A stretch of DNA of 64,000 nucleotides from Escherichia coli (GTDB lineage Bacteria > Pseudomonadota > Gammaproteobacteria > Enterobacterales > Enterobacteriaceae), in NCBI RefSeq assembly GCF_016903815.1, contig NZ_CP069973.1. The stretch is one strand, 5' to 3'. This document shows, one piece after another, positions 14,798 to 34,617 of this stretch; position 1 is the first letter of the stretch, and every line of letters begins with the position of its first letter. The position numbers and the translations under genes are program-made. The notes under the pieces were generated by a model, which made no database searches, had not been told where the DNA came from, and saw only the letters and a program-made list of their open reading frames with translations.

Positions 14798-15747
<950 letters not shown>

Positions 15748-15773
<26 letters not shown>

Positions 15774-16476
15774 GATGCCAGCGCAGCAAGTTTGCCATCG
15801 CAAAGAGATATTTTTCGCTGGCTTCGTCGGAGGAGATGGGTGGAAACTCTGCGGTGATGCAATGCAGGTTGAGATCCGCACACCAACTGCCGAAAGAGCC
15901 AGGCGTTTCATAACCGACGCTGGTTACCAGAGGCAATTCAAACGCCTGGGCCAGCCATTCACCTAATTCGCTGTGTCTGGGATCTTCAATACAGGCCAGC
16001 GGATCGTGGAATGAGACCACCCAGGCGGGTTGAATGCGGTGTATAAGCTGGCACAGCGCCTGGGTTTCAGGTTCAGAGCCAGGTTTGTCACCTGTCAGCA
16101 ATACGACATCACGTTCTTCAGCGGCGCTGTTCCAGCGATAAACGGTTTCACCTTCCTTCCAATTCGCCGCCGGAAAGTTTCTGTTTAAATCCACACCATT
16201 AGCATTGGCCCGTAACCCCAACTGGCAGCCGTCAGGATTCACACACAGCACCACATGATGACGGCGCAAAGAAGGTGTCAACGTCCGCAGAGCACAGGAG
16301 AGCGTGACGACCGAAGAGTTTTCATCACCGTGAGTGCCAGCCAGAATCAAACCACTTTCGCGGCTGGCTGCAGGGGCAGGAAACCAGATTAACGGCGCGC
16401 CCAATAATGAACGTCCGTAATGTTCTGTTCCGGGCGGAAATGCGCCGCGTTCGGCGCGTGGGCGGGTTACGGTCAT
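15748..16476 (-). CDS. mpaA: Murein peptide amidase A (gamma-D-Glu-Dap amidase, M14 family)
   Basis: 242 aa from MTVTRPRAERG within ORF 15748-16536. Confidence 0.85.
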
Positions 16477-16766
16477 GATCGTCTCTGGTTCAGGAAGTAT
16501 TACAGGCAGTGTTGTGCAAATTTTGCGGATTATCAAATCCTTTTCTTCAACGCTATGTCATCGATCTTGTATCACTTTTTTGCCGGAAGTTGTTTGCATT
16601 TTCATTGATGTGCAGATATTAGAATTGTCGTAATGTTATATACATGGCGTATTTTATTCTTACTGGTTCTACACATGTTAATCGCATCTGATTGATCAGT
16701 TCACCTTAATAAGTTTAATAAATCGTACTGCACATAGTACAGTACGAAGGTAGCTATATAATTGAT

Positions 16767-17405
16767 TTACATGAAGAATGGCTTATCGCCATCAGTCCCG
16801 GGCTGATTGATGCCTATATTCTCACCAATGTGTTTCTCAGGTTTATCGATGATATCTGTAATTAATGCTGCGACACTCTTACGTGATACGATCGTACCTT
16901 TGAATGGTTCATTGCGTGAGGTAAGCTCATAATCAATAATATCTTCATCGGTCAGCCAGGCAGGGCGAAGAATTGTATATTCCAGTCCAGAAGCCTCAAT
17001 TGCATCCGCAGCCCTGCGGAATGGTTTTAGGGGCTCACAAATAACTGCATTATTCCATTCGCCAAATTTTCCTGGAACTTCATCATAAATACCGAGGGAA
17101 AGAACAAAGATCAGACGTTTAACATCACAGGCTTTCATCGCAGCGATCACTGAATTTGCCTGAATATCTAAATCTTCCCCCGTAAGGTTGGCATACACAA
17201 CATCCTGTCCCTGCATGGCCTGCTTCAGTGCTGCATGATTCAGTACATCCCCCATAATAATCTTGCTATTAGTTGGATAGGGTTTGTGGATTTTTGCTGG
17301 CTGACGGGCAAATAAAGTTTGTTTAATGGTTTGTTTATCTGCCAGTTGATTAATCACATGGCGGGCTATCTGACCGCCAGCACCAAGAATCAGTACATTT
17401 TTCAT
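16767..17405 (-). CDS. ymjC: NAD(P)-binding NmrA/SDR-like protein, full length here
   Basis: 212 aa; N-terminal ILGAGGQIARH Rossmann motif. Confidence 0.7.
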   Translation of the reverse strand: MKNVLILGAGGQIARHVINQLADKQTIKQTLFARQPAKIHKPYPTNSKIIMGDVLNHAALKQAMQGQDVVYANLTGEDLDIQANSVIAAMKACDVKRLIFVLSLGIYDEVPGKFGEWNNAVICEPLKPFRRAADAIEASGLEYTILRPAWLTDEDIIDYELTSRNEPFKGTIVSRKSVAALITDIIDKPEKHIGENIGINQPGTDGDKPFFM

Positions 17406-17476
17406 GAAACTTTTCCCAGATTATTGGCAGCAATATGCCAGGCCATATCACTATTACGGATTTGAATATGTTTCAT
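17402..17476 (-). CDS. Small ORF (24 aa) bridging ycjY and ymjC; possibly the ymjD small protein
   Basis: ATG overlaps ycjY stop, stop overlaps ymjC ATG; MKHIQIRNSDMAWHIAANNLGKVS. Confidence 0.35.
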   Translation of the reverse strand: MKHIQIRNSDMAWHIAANNLGKVS

Positions 17477-18396
17477 TACAGAGTTTCCTCAAAGAACGGC
17501 GCTAATACTGAAATTGCTTCAGCCACATAGACTTTGCCGTCATAAAGATCCATATGGTTTGCGCCTTCAACAATGTGATAGCGTTTATCCTGGCTTGATG
17601 CTCGATCGTACAGGTCGTCACTCATCCATTTGCTCCCTGCCTGGCTGCCCGCCACAATCTGTATCGGCTGAGTCAGGTACACTTCCGCCATATGGTAAGC
17701 ATCATAGGTAATAATCTGGTTAAGGCTGCGCAAAGTAGCGTAACCCGGTGCTGTTGGATACTGCGCGCGAGGGGTGTGGTAATACTCCCAGGCCTGACGC
17801 AGTTCTTCGTTCGGCGCATCGGACTCCTTCATTGGTGCCAGTGGCATGGTGGCGTATTCTCCGCTGCTAATATCGCTGGTTCGGGCGTTTGAACCCGCGT
17901 CAACGTATGGTAGGGCATCAATAGATTTCACATTGTTTTCCCAACCATTACGGAACATCGAACCAATATTGACCGCACTAACAGTACCGATGGCCTTGAT
18001 GCGGCGATCCTGAATTGCAGCATTGGCTGTATATCCTGCACCGGCACAAATTCCCATCGCACCAATTCGGCTATTGTCGACATAAGAAAGCGTTGTCAGA
18101 TAATCAATCACGGCACTGACGTCTTCAGTACGAATGTATGGGTTTTCTAACTGACGCGGCTCGCCGCCGCTTTCACCTTGATAAGATGCGTCATAAGCAA
18201 TAGTGACAAATCCCTTTTCCGCCAGTTTTTCGGCATAGGTTCCAGCCGTTTGCTCTTTAACGCCCCCACCTGGGTGAGATACCACAATTGCCGGATACTG
18301 ACGGGTTTCATCAAATTTTGGAGGGAAATAGATCACTGCAGACAAAGAGATGGTTGGATTATTGCTGTTAGTGAAGCTGACTTTATTATTCATCAT
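17476..18396 (-). CDS. ycjY: Alpha/beta hydrolase (dienelactone hydrolase-like)
   Basis: ORF 17476-18408; start at MNNKVSF with AGGAA SD gives 306 aa; GxCxG nucleophile elbow. Confidence 0.8.
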   Translation of the reverse strand: MMNNKVSFTNSNNPTISLSAVIYFPPKFDETRQYPAIVVSHPGGGVKEQTAGTYAEKLAEKGFVTIAYDASYQGESGGEPRQLENPYIRTEDVSAVIDYLTTLSYVDNSRIGAMGICAGAGYTANAAIQDRRIKAIGTVSAVNIGSMFRNGWENNVKSIDALPYVDAGSNARTSDISSGEYATMPLAPMKESDAPNEELRQAWEYYHTPRAQYPTAPGYATLRSLNQIITYDAYHMAEVYLTQPIQIVAGSQAGSKWMSDDLYDRASSQDKRYHIVEGANHMDLYDGKVYVAEAISVLAPFFEETL

Positions 18397-18533
18397 TCCG
18401 TTCCTCATGGAGTTGTCGGTTCGTTTTAACGGTTGGTGATATCACTATAGATATTGATCATTAAGTTGATTAGACCCAAAATCATGATTAGACCTATCAT
18501 TTAAATGATTAATAGATTGTATGGAGATACTGA

Positions 18534-19433
18534 ATGAAGCGTGAAGAAATCGCTGATCTGATGGCGTTTGTCGTCGTTGCAGAGGAGCGTAGCTTCACTC
18601 GCGCAGCAGCCCGCCTGAGCATGGCGCAGTCAGCTTTAAGCCAGATAGTGCGCCGTATAGAAGAACGATTGGGATTGCGGCTTCTGACACGAACCACGCG
18701 CAGCGTTGTACCCACTGAAGCGGGCGAGCATCTTTTGTCTGTTCTTGGCCCTATGTTGCATGACATAGATTCTGCCCTGACATCCCTGAGCGATCTGCAG
18801 AACCGCCCATCCGGGACAATACGTATTACTACTGTAGAACATGCAGCAAAAACGATATTGTTACCAGCTATGCGCACATTCCTGAAATCGCATCCTGAAA
18901 TTGATATCCAGCTTACCATTGATTATGGTTTGACCGATGTCGTTTCTGAACGTTTTGATGCAGGCGTCCGTCTGGGTGGGGAGATGGATAAAGATATGAT
19001 CGCCATTCGAATCGGGCCAGATATACCAATGGCTATTGTTGGCTCACCGGATTATTTTTCTCGTCGAAGTGCTCCAACGTCAGTGTCACAATTAATAGAT
19101 CATCAGGCAATTAATTTGTATCTTCCCACATCGGGTACAGCAAATCGCTGGAGATTAATACGCGGTGGACGTGAAGTTCGTGTTCGCATGGAAGGTCAGC
19201 TTTTACTGAATACGATAGACCTGATCATTGATGCTGCAATTGATGGGCATGGATTGGCGTATCTACCTTATGATCAGGTTGAGCGGGCTATTAAAGAAAA
19301 AAAACTGATACGTGTTTTGGATAAATTCACACCAGATTTACCCGGTTATCACCTGTACTATCCACACCGTCGACATGCTGGCTCGGCATTCTCATTATTT
19401 ATAGATAGGCTGAAGTATAAAGGTGCTGTTTAG
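18534..19433 (+). CDS. ycjZ: LysR-family transcriptional regulator
   Basis: 299 aa; N-terminal LysR HTH; divergent from ycjY. Confidence 0.85.
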   Translation: MKREEIADLMAFVVVAEERSFTRAAARLSMAQSALSQIVRRIEERLGLRLLTRTTRSVVPTEAGEHLLSVLGPMLHDIDSALTSLSDLQNRPSGTIRITTVEHAAKTILLPAMRTFLKSHPEIDIQLTIDYGLTDVVSERFDAGVRLGGEMDKDMIAIRIGPDIPMAIVGSPDYFSRRSAPTSVSQLIDHQAINLYLPTSGTANRWRLIRGGREVRVRMEGQLLLNTIDLIIDAAIDGHGLAYLPYDQVERAIKEKKLIRVLDKFTPDLPGYHLYYPHRRHAGSAFSLFIDRLKYKGAV

Positions 19434-32077: not shown

Positions 32078-33106
32078 ATGATAATTTCTAAAAAACAGCT
32101 TATTGGGGTGGTAGCGATCGGTATTATTTTGGCTGGCGTTGCCTTTTTTATCTGGTGGGTAAGCAAAGGAAGATTTATACAGACGACGGATGATGCTTAC
32201 ATTGGTGGTAATATCACCACGGTGGCAAGTAAAGTTTCTGGTTATATTTCTGCTATAGAGGTGCGCGATAATCAGAGCGTAAAAAAAGGCGATATTATCC
32301 TGCGTCTCGATGATCGGGATTATCGTGCAAATGTCGCCAGGCTTGAGGCAAAAATAAAAAGTAGCAAAGCCAATCTCGAAAGCATTCAAGCCACTATTAC
32401 GATGCAGCAGTCGATAATTCAAAGTGCCAGTGAAACATGGCAGGCAGTAAAACATGAGGAGCAAAAGCGCCTGCGAGATACTGAACGTTATGAAAAACTC
32501 GCACAATCAGCGGCAATATCGCAACAAGTTATTGATAACGCAAGGTTTGACTACCAGCAGGTCACAGCAAAGGAGCGCAAAGCCGCGAACGATTTCATGG
32601 TGGAGAAGCAACGGCTGGCAGTTTTATCTGCTCAGGAAGAAAACGTACGTGCAAGTATCGAAGAAGTTCAGGCCGCTTTGACTCAGGCACTACTGGATCT
32701 GGAATATACCCTTGTTCGTGCGCCGATTGATGGCATTGTCGCAAACCGCAGCGCCCATACAGGCAGTTGGGTGGAAGGCGGCACATCGTTAGTTTCACTA
32801 GTACCAGTCAGTGAGTTGTGGGTTGATGCAAATTATAAAGAAAACCAAATAGCGGGAATGAAGCCAGGAATGAAGGCTGAGATCCGTGCTGATATTCTCA
32901 AAGGGGAAGTGTTTCACGGTCACATTGAAAGCCTTTCCCCAGCGACAGGAGCCAGTTTCAGCTTGATTCCGATAGAAAATGCCACTGGCAATTTCACCAA
33001 AATTGTTCAGCGTGTCCCGGTACGGATTGCATTTGACGACGCAAAGGAATTAAAGCAACTTCTTCGCCCGGGGCTGTCCGTCACCGTCAGTGTTGATGAG
33101 AGATGA
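32078..33106 (+). CDS. HlyD/EmrA-family membrane fusion protein of a multidrug efflux pump
   Basis: about 342 aa; N-terminal TM anchor, coiled coil, beta-barrel region like EmrA/EmrK. Confidence 0.8.
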   Translation: MIISKKQLIGVVAIGIILAGVAFFIWWVSKGRFIQTTDDAYIGGNITTVASKVSGYISAIEVRDNQSVKKGDIILRLDDRDYRANVARLEAKIKSSKANLESIQATITMQQSIIQSASETWQAVKHEEQKRLRDTERYEKLAQSAAISQQVIDNARFDYQQVTAKERKAANDFMVEKQRLAVLSAQEENVRASIEEVQAALTQALLDLEYTLVRAPIDGIVANRSAHTGSWVEGGTSLVSLVPVSELWVDANYKENQIAGMKPGMKAEIRADILKGEVFHGHIESLSPATGASFSLIPIENATGNFTKIVQRVPVRIAFDDAKELKQLLRPGLSVTVSVDER

Positions 33107-34617
33107 TGTCTATGCGTAAACATATTGCTTTCGCCAGTATGTGTATGGGATTATTTATTGCTCAGCTTGATATTCAAATTGTATCGTCATCCCTAAATGA
33201 AATAGGTGGTGGTCTGTCCGCAGGTAAAGACGAAATGGCCTGGCTTCAGACCAGCTATTTAATTGCTGAGATTATTGTTATTCCGCTCTCTGGGTGGCTG
33301 TCACGGGTATTTTCCACTCGTTGGCTTTTTACTCTATCCGCGGGAATATTTACTTTAATGAGTATCGCGTGTGGACTTGCATGGAATATTCAGATCATGA
33401 TTTTGTTTCGTGCTTTACAGGGAGCGGCTGGCGCATCCATGATCCCTTTAGTTTTCACGACGGCGTTTATTTATTACCAGGGTAAAGAGTTGGGGTTGGC
33501 TGCTGCGGTAGTCAGTGCGCTGGCCTCACTGTCACCGACGCTAGGGCCAACTCTGGGGGGCTGGATCACTGATAACCTCGACTGGCGATGGCTATTTTAT
33601 ATCAATATATTACCTGGCATATATTTAGTTTTGAGTATTCCTTTTCTGGTTAATTTTGATAAACCTGATCTCTCTTTACTGAAAGTTGCTGATTATCCGA
33701 GTATTATCCTGTTGGCCATGACACTGGGATGTCTGGAATATACCCTTGAAGAAGGAGCGCGCTGGGGATGGCTGGATGATAATACTATTTTGCTGACATC
33801 AGTTCTGGCATTGGTGAGTTTTATTTTATTTGCTGCGCGTACACTTACAATATCCAATCCGATAATGGATCTTCATGCTTTTAAGGATAAAAATTTCACG
33901 CTGGGATGTTTTTTTTCTTTTTCTGGAGGGGTTGGGATATTCTCTACTGTATATTTAATACCTATGTTTTTGGGGCAGGTTCGCGGATTAAATGCCGAAG
34001 AGATAGGTTTTGCCGTTTGCACAACAGGTATTTTCCAGTTATTTTCTGTTCCCTTTTACTTCTGGTTAAGTAAAAAAATAAATCTGCGATGGCTGTTGAT
34101 GGCGGGGCTGGGTGGGTTTGTGTTTTCAATGTATCTTTTTACCCCTATAACCCACGAATGGGGATGGCAGGAGTTACTGTTTCCACAGGCAATTAGAGGG
34201 ATTTCGCAGCAGTTTGCGATGGCCCCCATCGTAACATTAACGCTGGGGGGAACTCCAAAAGAACGGCTGAAGTTAGCCTCTGGTGTATTTAATTTAACAC
34301 GTAATCTTGGGGGCGCGATTGGTATTGCCCTGTGTGGCTCTATTCTCAATAATCGAACTAATTTTCATTTTTCGAGAATGGGTGAAAAAATGGTTTCTGT
34401 TCCCCATACGGTGAATGACTTCATTTCCAGAAGTGCTTTGTTTTTTAATCGCAGTGGAAGTGACCAGACATCGGAAATACTAGCTTCAACCAAATTATTG
34501 AGTCAATTGATGCTGAGGGAGGCGCAAACTATGGCATTTTCGGATACCTTTCTGCTAATCAGTGGTCTGTTATTTATCGCATTTTTGTTGGTTCCTGCTA
34601 TGAATAAATCATCCTGA
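33103..34617 (+). CDS. MFS DHA2-family (EmrB/EmrY-like, 14-TMS) efflux transporter
   Basis: 504 aa; LDIQIVSSSL / GLFIAQLD motifs; 4 nt overlap with the fusion-protein gene; low GC. Confidence 0.8.
   Translation: MMSMRKHIAFASMCMGLFIAQLDIQIVSSSLNEIGGGLSAGKDEMAWLQTSYLIAEIIVIPLSGWLSRVFSTRWLFTLSAGIFTLMSIACGLAWNIQIMILFRALQGAAGASMIPLVFTTAFIYYQGKELGLAAAVVSALASLSPTLGPTLGGWITDNLDWRWLFYINILPGIYLVLSIPFLVNFDKPDLSLLKVADYPSIILLAMTLGCLEYTLEEGARWGWLDDNTILLTSVLALVSFILFAARTLTISNPIMDLHAFKDKNFTLGCFFSFSGGVGIFSTVYLIPMFLGQVRGLNAEEIGFAVCTTGIFQLFSVPFYFWLSKKINLRWLLMAGLGGFVFSMYLFTPITHEWGWQELLFPQAIRGISQQFAMAPIVTLTLGGTPKERLKLASGVFNLTRNLGGAIGIALCGSILNNRTNFHFSRMGEKMVSVPHTVNDFISRSALFFNRSGSDQTSEILASTKLLSQLMLREAQTMAFSDTFLLISGLLFIAFLLVPAMNKSS

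Follow-up and report, generated by a model that had tools for sequence, protein, structure and literature searches.

The stretch of DNA analyzed here, hereafter the window, comprises 64,000 nt of Escherichia coli (contig NZ_CP069973.1). On its minus strand, ycjY, which encodes an alpha/beta hydrolase, is followed by a small ORF, by the gene of an SDR/NAD(P)H-binding protein (hereafter the SDR) and by mpaA; the regulator gene pgrR lies on the plus strand and diverges from this unit (Table 1). The operon has been described as ycjY-ymjDC(-mpaA), transcribed from a constitutive promoter between ycjY and pgrR and controlled by PgrR (PMC3946193, PMC5934670). The 212-aa SDR matched the NAD(P)H-binding family PF13460 over positions 1–184 of the 184 model positions (E = 2.5e-53), and PGAP gives it the name "SDR family oxidoreductase" in strain 7/2 of E. 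coli, the chromosome of which agrees with the first 50 kb of the window at every base. An earlier note, made from the sequence alone, had described ymjC as a complete 212-aa Rossmann-fold protein in this DNA, and the match over the whole model bears this out.

Table 1. Features of the ycjY–SDR region, in window positions.
Feature	Position	Strand	Remarks
pgrR	18534..19433	+	Divergent LysR-type regulator of the ycjY-ymjD-ymjC-mpaA unit (annotation; PMC5934670)
ycjY	17476..18396	-	Hydrolase of the alpha/beta type (306 aa in the annotation) that opens the PgrR-controlled operon; longest ORF extends to 18408
Shine-Dalgarno GAGGAA of the small ORF	17485..17490	-	Within the last ycjY codons; formerly that of hyd2
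TAATG junction	17474..17478	-	ycjY TAA (17476..17478) and small-ORF ATG (17474..17476), 1 base in common
Small ORF (ymjD allele)	17402..17476	-	hyd2 codons 1–18, hybrid codon 19 (AAT), hyd2 codons 309–310 (CTG GGA), read-through AAA GTT TCA, then TGA
Deletion junction	17421..17422	-	867 nt in frame (hyd2 nt 56–922 gone); breakpoints without microhomology
Codon 22, AAA	17411..17413	-	Native stop TAA in hyd2-bearing and K-12-like genomes; stop lost here
ATGA junction	17402..17405	-	Small-ORF TGA (17402..17404) over SDR ATG (17403..17405); ttc ATGA aaa; also the site of the 12-nt deletion
SDR/NAD(P)H-binding protein	16767..17405	-	Full length, 212 aa; intact form of the K-12 pseudogene ymjC
660-nt segment	16607..17266	-	Kept here, deleted from genomes of the K-12 type, where ymjC is consequently cut short after codon 46
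mpaA	15748..16476	-	Last listed gene of the operon (annotation; PMC5934670)

Several features of the surrounding DNA were observed along the way. The beginning of ycjY contains three in-frame ATGs (18393–18408, minus strand), at 18408, 18396 and 18393. A Shine-Dalgarno site GAGGAA suits the starts at 18396 and 18393 (-6.3 and -6.9 kcal/mol, respectively), and the start of the longest ORF at 18408 is without one (+0.1 kcal/mol); tetracycline ribosome profiling has moved the K-12 ycjY start from both of its earlier annotations (PMC4909307). Between the SDR stop and mpaA, we found a terminator-like hairpin (16723–16747, minus strand) with an 11-bp stem (TCGTACTGTAC...GTACAGTACGA) followed by TTTATT. 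This hairpin lies within the 660-nt segment absent from K-12, and given its loss there, the strain types may differ in their read-through from ycjY into mpaA. Farther away, the annotation of strain 7/2 places a frameshifted DHA2 MFS efflux gene at 33103–34558, an IS1 insertion (36393–37090) that splits dgcM into 35396–36334 and a fragment at 37106–37405, and a Rac-like prophage (intR, xisR, ralR, recT, recE, kilR, sieB) from about 41610. Finally, the mppA-pgrR spacer of B1-type strains holds a short internal fragment of QueH (epoxyqueuosine reductase), a pseudogene according to PGAP (L004, 279–371; L005, 297–371); going by the annotation only, this remnant carries no label in the window strain.

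The ORF listing of the window gives, between ycjY and the SDR gene, an ATG..TGA frame of 24 codons on the minus strand whose product is MKHIQIRNSDMAWHIAANNLGKVS. Its first base (17476) is the final base of the ycjY stop (ctg TAATG aaa) and its stop lies over the SDR start codon; both overlaps, to which the earlier note had drawn attention, are present (Table 1). Taken on its own, a 24-codon open frame is not remarkable: the 4 kb surrounding it contain 68 ORFs of at least 20 aa. The overlaps are likewise routine operon junctions. Indeed, the annotated overlaps within 50 kb of the window measure 4 nt in four gene pairs and 1 nt in two pairs, so that six other gene pairs display the same geometry (e.g., ycjS/ycjT, ycjT/pgmB and abgB/abgA). 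Overlaps of 4 nt (ATGA) and of 1 nt (TAATG or TGATG) are associated with termination-reinitiation, as for gene pairs of the trp operon. With this stop/start geometry at both of its ends, the small ORF resembles coupled overlapping cistrons. PGAP leaves it unannotated in strain 7/2.

We then compared the locus to the annotation of K-12. In MG1655, ymjD (b4673, YP_009518774.1; 21 aa) occupies the same place and ymjC (b4525, 60 aa) starts 5 nt downstream of it. The earlier note had named ymjD/ymjC as the annotation to compare with, and the link is right: K-12 ymjD and the ORF of the window share their position between ycjY and ymjC, the TAATG start, the 867-nt deletion junction and the 12-nt deletion described below, and 20 of the 21 YmjD residues (A12 in the window and D12 in K-12). 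They differ at their 3' ends, where K-12 ymjD stops at the TAA that follows CTG GGA and the frame of the window reads CTG GGA AAA GTT TCA TGA. Because the TAA became AAA, the frame runs on until it meets its next stop, the TGA contained in the ATGA of the SDR start. With three additional codons and another stop, the ORF differs from ymjD as one allele from another and not as a second gene; its alignment to K-12 identifies it as an allele of this already catalogued small gene of E. coli. The downstream gene also differs: it is intact here (212 aa), whereas K-12 carries a truncated 60-aa fragment because a further deletion of 660 nt removed the SDR from codon 47 on. Public protein collections already contain both forms of the peptide: the K-12 product as YMJD_ECOLI in UniProt, and the 24-aa form as a "hypothetical protein" on at least 1000 contigs. 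In EcoGene, YmjD is reportedly described as a deletion-fusion remnant that is expressed.

Megablast comparison of the junction with 5426 complete E. coli genomes revealed three forms of the locus, all of them flanked by ycjY and the SDR: one resembles the window, one is K-12-like, with homology ending within ymjC, and the third contains about 880 extra bases and two genes annotated as "alpha/beta hydrolase". We refer to the second of these hydrolase genes, located between ycjY and the SDR, as hyd2. It is intact in strain CUVET18-1475, where it encodes 310 aa (WP_000680595.1) and starts at the ycjY TAATG. In O157:H7, the ycjY TAATG is again the exact starting point of the extra gene, which carries a frameshift according to its annotation. 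The Hyd2 protein shares 42% identity with YcjY over 299 residues (E = 2e-79), and the two have in common an alpha/beta-hydrolase Pfam signature of the S15/DLH type. Both proteins also carry a cysteine at the nucleophile-elbow position, as dienelactone hydrolases do (GICAGAG in YcjY, around position 18040 of the window; GVCGGGG in Hyd2, around position 1990 of the O157:H7 sequence L001).

The small ORF proved to be what is left of hyd2, an identity that the earlier note had missed. Its first 55 nt and the upstream GAGGAA are the 5' end of hyd2, as matched in L001, L004 and L005. When nucleotides 56–922 are removed from the hyd2 of L005 (867 nt; 289 codons, in frame), the resulting sequence is the 21-aa ymjD allele of strain 13P484A at 66 of 66 nt. 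The YmjD peptide is therefore composed of hyd2 residues 1–18, a hybrid Asn codon and hyd2 residues 309–310 (Leu-Gly). In addition, all scar alleles lack 12 nt located between two ATGA repeats on the 3' side of the hyd2 stop, the ancestral arrangement reading TTTCATGAGAAATATTATGAAAAATG and the scar TTTCATGAAAAATG. The two arrangements differ in spacing by 879 nt, the sum of the deletions of 867 nt and 12 nt. We searched the breakpoints of the 867-nt deletion for microhomology and found none. Compared with the intact hyd2 of CUVET18-1475 (WP_000680595.1), the ORF retains the same DNA in the first 18 codons, the Shine-Dalgarno site, the start overlapping ycjY and the last two codons (L, G), but the 289 codons with the catalytic core, including the GVCGGGG motif, are gone and no enzyme is possible. 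The middle ORF is here a gene remnant and not a functional cistron, unlike in ordinary coupled cistrons. Its exact fit at both ends is not a product of chance, because it descends from a real gene.

Outside E. coli, the ycjY-hyd2 tandem is also found beside pgrR, both in the Enterobacterales Serratia, Citrobacter, Pseudocitrobacter and Shimwellia, where the module reads pgrR/ycjY/hyd2(/SDR), and in many Alphaproteobacteria. The abutting ycjY/hyd2 junction, CTGTAATGAAA, is conserved in Serratia, Citrobacter and Pseudocitrobacter; it is present in L005, L004, L001, L006–L008 and L010. Shimwellia presents the same pgrR/ycjY/hyd2 gene order, and in many Alphaproteobacteria the spacer between ycjY and hyd2 is about 100 nt long. 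This distribution shows that the two-hydrolase module next to pgrR is the ancestral state, and that the TAATG junction and the Shine-Dalgarno site of the small ORF are inherited from the ancestral ycjY-hyd2 junction. The ATGA junction is recent and specific to one allele, the product of the TAA to AAA stop loss and of the 12-nt deletion. The AAA found at codon 22 of the window is the derived state, since the hyd2-bearing genomes examined all have T at the first position of this codon. A history in which the short ORF is older and received hyd2 by insertion would require other genera to lack the hyd2 module, and this is contradicted by its occurrence there.

The alphaproteobacterial modules deserve separate mention. 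Genera that carry pgrR/ycjY/hyd2 include, among others, Agrobacterium, Rhizobium, Microvirga and Camelimonas (L011–L019, L023–L028, L035), and the encoded proteins share 73–84% amino acid identity with those of E. coli, relative to 85–92% for Serratia and Citrobacter. These near-equal identities point to the entire cassette having moved horizontally from one class to another.

The scar is the prevailing form of the locus in E. coli. It was found in 3947 of the 5426 genomes (73%), and hyd2 is kept in 1283 (24%). When two genome searches are combined, the scar is followed by an intact SDR in about 1600 genomes and by a truncated SDR in about 2350. Over the 99-nt junction probe, 1326 E. coli genomes are identical to the window. 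Some of the remaining copies of hyd2 are damaged. In the O157 lineage, the gene contains a +G frameshift in a poly-G run within the GVCGGGG motif (412 genomes are at least 99% identical to the O157 copy), and about 20 genomes carry an amber codon at W13. These lesions exist beside the deletion, which indicates that hyd2 is being lost by several independent ways. The O157 frameshift falls exactly on the poly-G run that encodes the nucleophile-elbow motif. What is mildly new in this distribution is that the stop loss turned the 5-nt gap of the K-12 type into a 4-nt overlap in approximately one quarter of E. coli genomes.

We further analyzed the variation of the small ORF across the sampled genomes and in metagenomes, where a pattern scan yielded 25 matches; seven were discarded as unrelated chance matches and 18 scars on independent contigs were kept. 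Both the 21-aa and the 24-aa forms occur with either A or D at residue 12, and the 21-aa allele with A12 is also present in E. coli. The small ORF of E2348/69 carries W13R, and synonymous changes (CGT/CGC and CTG/CTA) are found elsewhere. The Shine-Dalgarno site and the ATG are intact and the frame is open in 18 of the 18 metagenome scars and in all sampled genomes. Neither start-loss nor frameshift alleles were seen in this set, an absence that carries no statistical power for a target of 75 nt; a uniformly open ORF is expected for such a target at the diversity of E. coli, and is also compatible with selection. In total, the 75 nt present two synonymous substitutions, two nonsynonymous substitutions and one stop change, which are too few for a test of constraint on the peptide. 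The variation of the peptide itself—A12D, W13R and 21 or 24 aa, in all combinations—argues against such a constraint.

These data bear on the possibility that YmjD, in its 21-aa or 24-aa form, has gained a cellular role of its own, such as binding to a larger protein. The K-12 product is an annotated protein and the peptide is encoded in about 73% of E. coli genomes, with no disrupted allele among the sampled sequences. However, its sequence is merely the N-terminal strand of a hydrolase, it matches no Pfam family, it is not hydrophobic (GRAVY -0.35) and it has no homolog outside the scar haplotype. The substitutions A12D and W13R are non-conservative, the C-terminus is variable, and about 24% of strains have a full or broken hyd2 in its place. 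A functional small protein is, in our judgment, highly improbable.

The allele of the small ORF is associated with the state of the SDR. In 60 sampled rows from complete genomes, the 24-aa form accompanies an intact SDR in 19 of 19 rows and the 21-aa form a truncated SDR in 26 of 26 rows. We do not take the association of the 24-aa form with an intact SDR as evidence of selection, in view of recombinant haplotypes: Escherichia sp. E1V33 (L039) and two metagenome contigs (L053 and L070) combine the 24-aa form with a truncated SDR. All four combinations of allele and SDR state occur, a sign of recombination rather than of a functional tie.

Two of the unusual sequences presented additional particularities. 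When E1V33 (L039, 2770–5002) is aligned to positions 15702–18600 of the window, the segment from ycjY through the scar to the truncated ymjC is 97.5% identical and the mpaA/ycjG side 87% identical, and the break in identity falls at the K-12-type 660-nt SDR deletion. This pattern suggests that the scar haplotype was imported from E. coli into the cryptic-clade Escherichia E1V33 by recombination. In a human gut metagenome contig with a coverage of 1.9x (L068), the scar allele has ATGAAATG in place of ATGAAAAATG at the start of ymjC. This 2-nt deletion is probably an assembly error due to low coverage, or a further step in the decay of an already truncated ymjC.

We next examined whether the remnant carries the signals needed for its translation. 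The pairing of its Shine-Dalgarno site (UGAGGAA) with the 3' tail of 16S rRNA has a predicted energy of -6.2 kcal/mol, which ranks it in the top 6.6% of all ATGs of the window and makes it equal to the site of ycjY. A consensus scan found neither an internal promoter nor a terminator at the small ORF. For K-12, one published study counted ymjD among the sORFs known before, obtained ribosome-footprint counts that were usable for it, and found no response to acid (PMC10746267, Table S8). The gene is absent from the TetRP supplements, where ycjY alone appears, and the RiboReport supplement contains nothing on it. The signals at its start and the K-12 footprints make it likely that the small ORF is translated in this strain, by reinitiation at UAAUG after ycjY or by direct binding of ribosomes to the Shine-Dalgarno site. 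Hemm and colleagues reportedly detected SPA-tagged K-12 YmjD in 2008.

Alternatively, the ORF could be an untranslated chance frame from which nothing is made, in which case the stretch would be a 70-nt intergenic spacer. The silence of PGAP in the identical strain 7/2 and the abundance of ORFs of similar size in the neighborhood are what one would expect from such a frame, and the ymjD footprints are accompanied by no regulated change (PMC10746267). Against it, the entire initiation region of a real gene is kept, with a Shine-Dalgarno site as strong as that of ycjY and a start overlapping the upstream stop, and the K-12 allele counts as an expressed sORF for which footprint-based fold changes can be computed (PMC10746267, Table S8). 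A chance frame thus appears very unlikely, and we retain translation of the remnant as the preferred reading.

The Shine-Dalgarno site of the SDR start has a predicted energy of -4.2 kcal/mol in the window, relative to -2.7 kcal/mol in the ancestral arrangement. Folding of the minus strand from 17370 to 17510 gave a minimum free energy of -29.4 kcal/mol, against a mean of -28.98 kcal/mol for shuffled sequences (z = -0.12), and thus no sign of a stable RNA structure. An Rfam search of positions 16000–19000 returned no family at E ≤ 1 in the junction, the sub-threshold match to RAGATH-10 lying elsewhere. A leader peptide or attenuator uORF, which we had also considered, was rejected on the folding result together with the lack of an Rfam family. 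[quoted passage not shown] Like these, the remnant is a short ORF whose end falls on, or inside, the start region of a longer gene; in contrast, they are located in 5' leaders, and the ORF studied here is found in the middle of an operon, originates from a deletion and presents no detected regulatory RNA structure.

A chain of termination and reinitiation from ycjY through the small ORF to the SDR is mechanistically plausible, because a Shine-Dalgarno site as strong as that of ycjY precedes the small ORF; coupling to the SDR itself is what we infer from this arrangement. The earlier note had taken the TAATG/ATGA pattern as a sign of translational coupling of all three frames. The geometry of the overlaps is real and the chain plausible, but the same 24-aa form stands upstream of a dead, truncated SDR in L039, L053 and L070, and the pattern therefore constitutes no evidence of a designed three-gene coupling.

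A more demanding interpretation is that the scar was kept and the TAA to AAA change selected because translation of the stub is needed to start the SDR and to cover the mRNA as far as mpaA, the ATGA overlap restoring a coupling that had been lost together with hyd2. Several observations are in line with it: the Shine-Dalgarno site of the SDR is weak in the window and weaker still in the ancestral arrangement, among the scars of the 60-row sample an intact SDR always comes with the 24-aa form and the 21-aa form always with a truncated SDR, and overlapping small ORFs can change downstream translation (Weaver et al., 10.1101/511675). Yet the 24-aa allele before a truncated SDR in E1V33 and in the two metagenome contigs resembles a haplotype linkage that recombination has broken up. 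Folding gave no structure that would hide the SDR start and so render coupling obligatory (z = -0.12), and reinitiation would be feasible already with the K-12 spacing, in which the stop precedes the ATG by 5 nt. We regard this interpretation as unlikely. Its evolutionary core, that the scar was co-opted as a translational bridge and the stop loss favored for restoring the hand-over of ribosomes from ycjY to an intact SDR, is in our view quite unlikely.

Considered jointly, the evidence makes it very probable that the small ORF is the in-frame scar of the deleted hyd2, and that this stub is likely translated into what is most likely a functionless peptide. Under this explanation, the locus started from pgrR diverging from ycjY, hyd2 and the SDR, in this order, with hyd2 being a 310-aa paralog of ycjY whose ATG lay over the ycjY stop. 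The deletion of hyd2 nt 56–922 spared its ribosome-binding site, its start, its first 18 codons, its last two codons and its stop, giving rise to the 21-aa ymjD of K-12, and the linked 12-nt deletion brought the ATG of the SDR to 5 nt past the stop of the stub. In the lineage of the window, the change of TAA to AAA then added three codons to the frame, up to the TGA in the ATGA of the SDR. Located in a transcribed operon with a complete initiation region, the stub is most likely translated by ribosomes that finish ycjY or that bind GAGGAA. These ribosomes would end on the SDR start codon, and some of them would probably be handed over by termination-reinitiation to the SDR, with its weak Shine-Dalgarno site. 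For the 24-aa peptide as such, a function is improbable. The sequences show the ancestry, the breakpoints, the distribution of the alleles and the Shine-Dalgarno strengths, and from these we infer translation in this strain, any benefit of coupling and the lack of a role for the peptide.

These results explain the oddness of ymjD and ymjC in K-12 by two successive deletions, first of hyd2 and then of the 3' two-thirds of the SDR, of which the B2-type strain of the window carries only the first. Their biological weight is small, and the locus is chiefly a clear lesson for annotation: when a small ORF exactly fills the space between two genes, it can be what an in-frame deletion left of a former gene, and such a stub looks coupled because it inherited the ribosome-binding site and the start/stop geometry of its parent gene. 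If the stub proved to be needed for translation of the SDR, it would represent a modest case of a pseudogene remnant retained for coupling. Similarly, if the scar did serve as a bridge between ycjY and the SDR, it would illustrate how a gene remnant can be kept in nature solely for the act of its translation.
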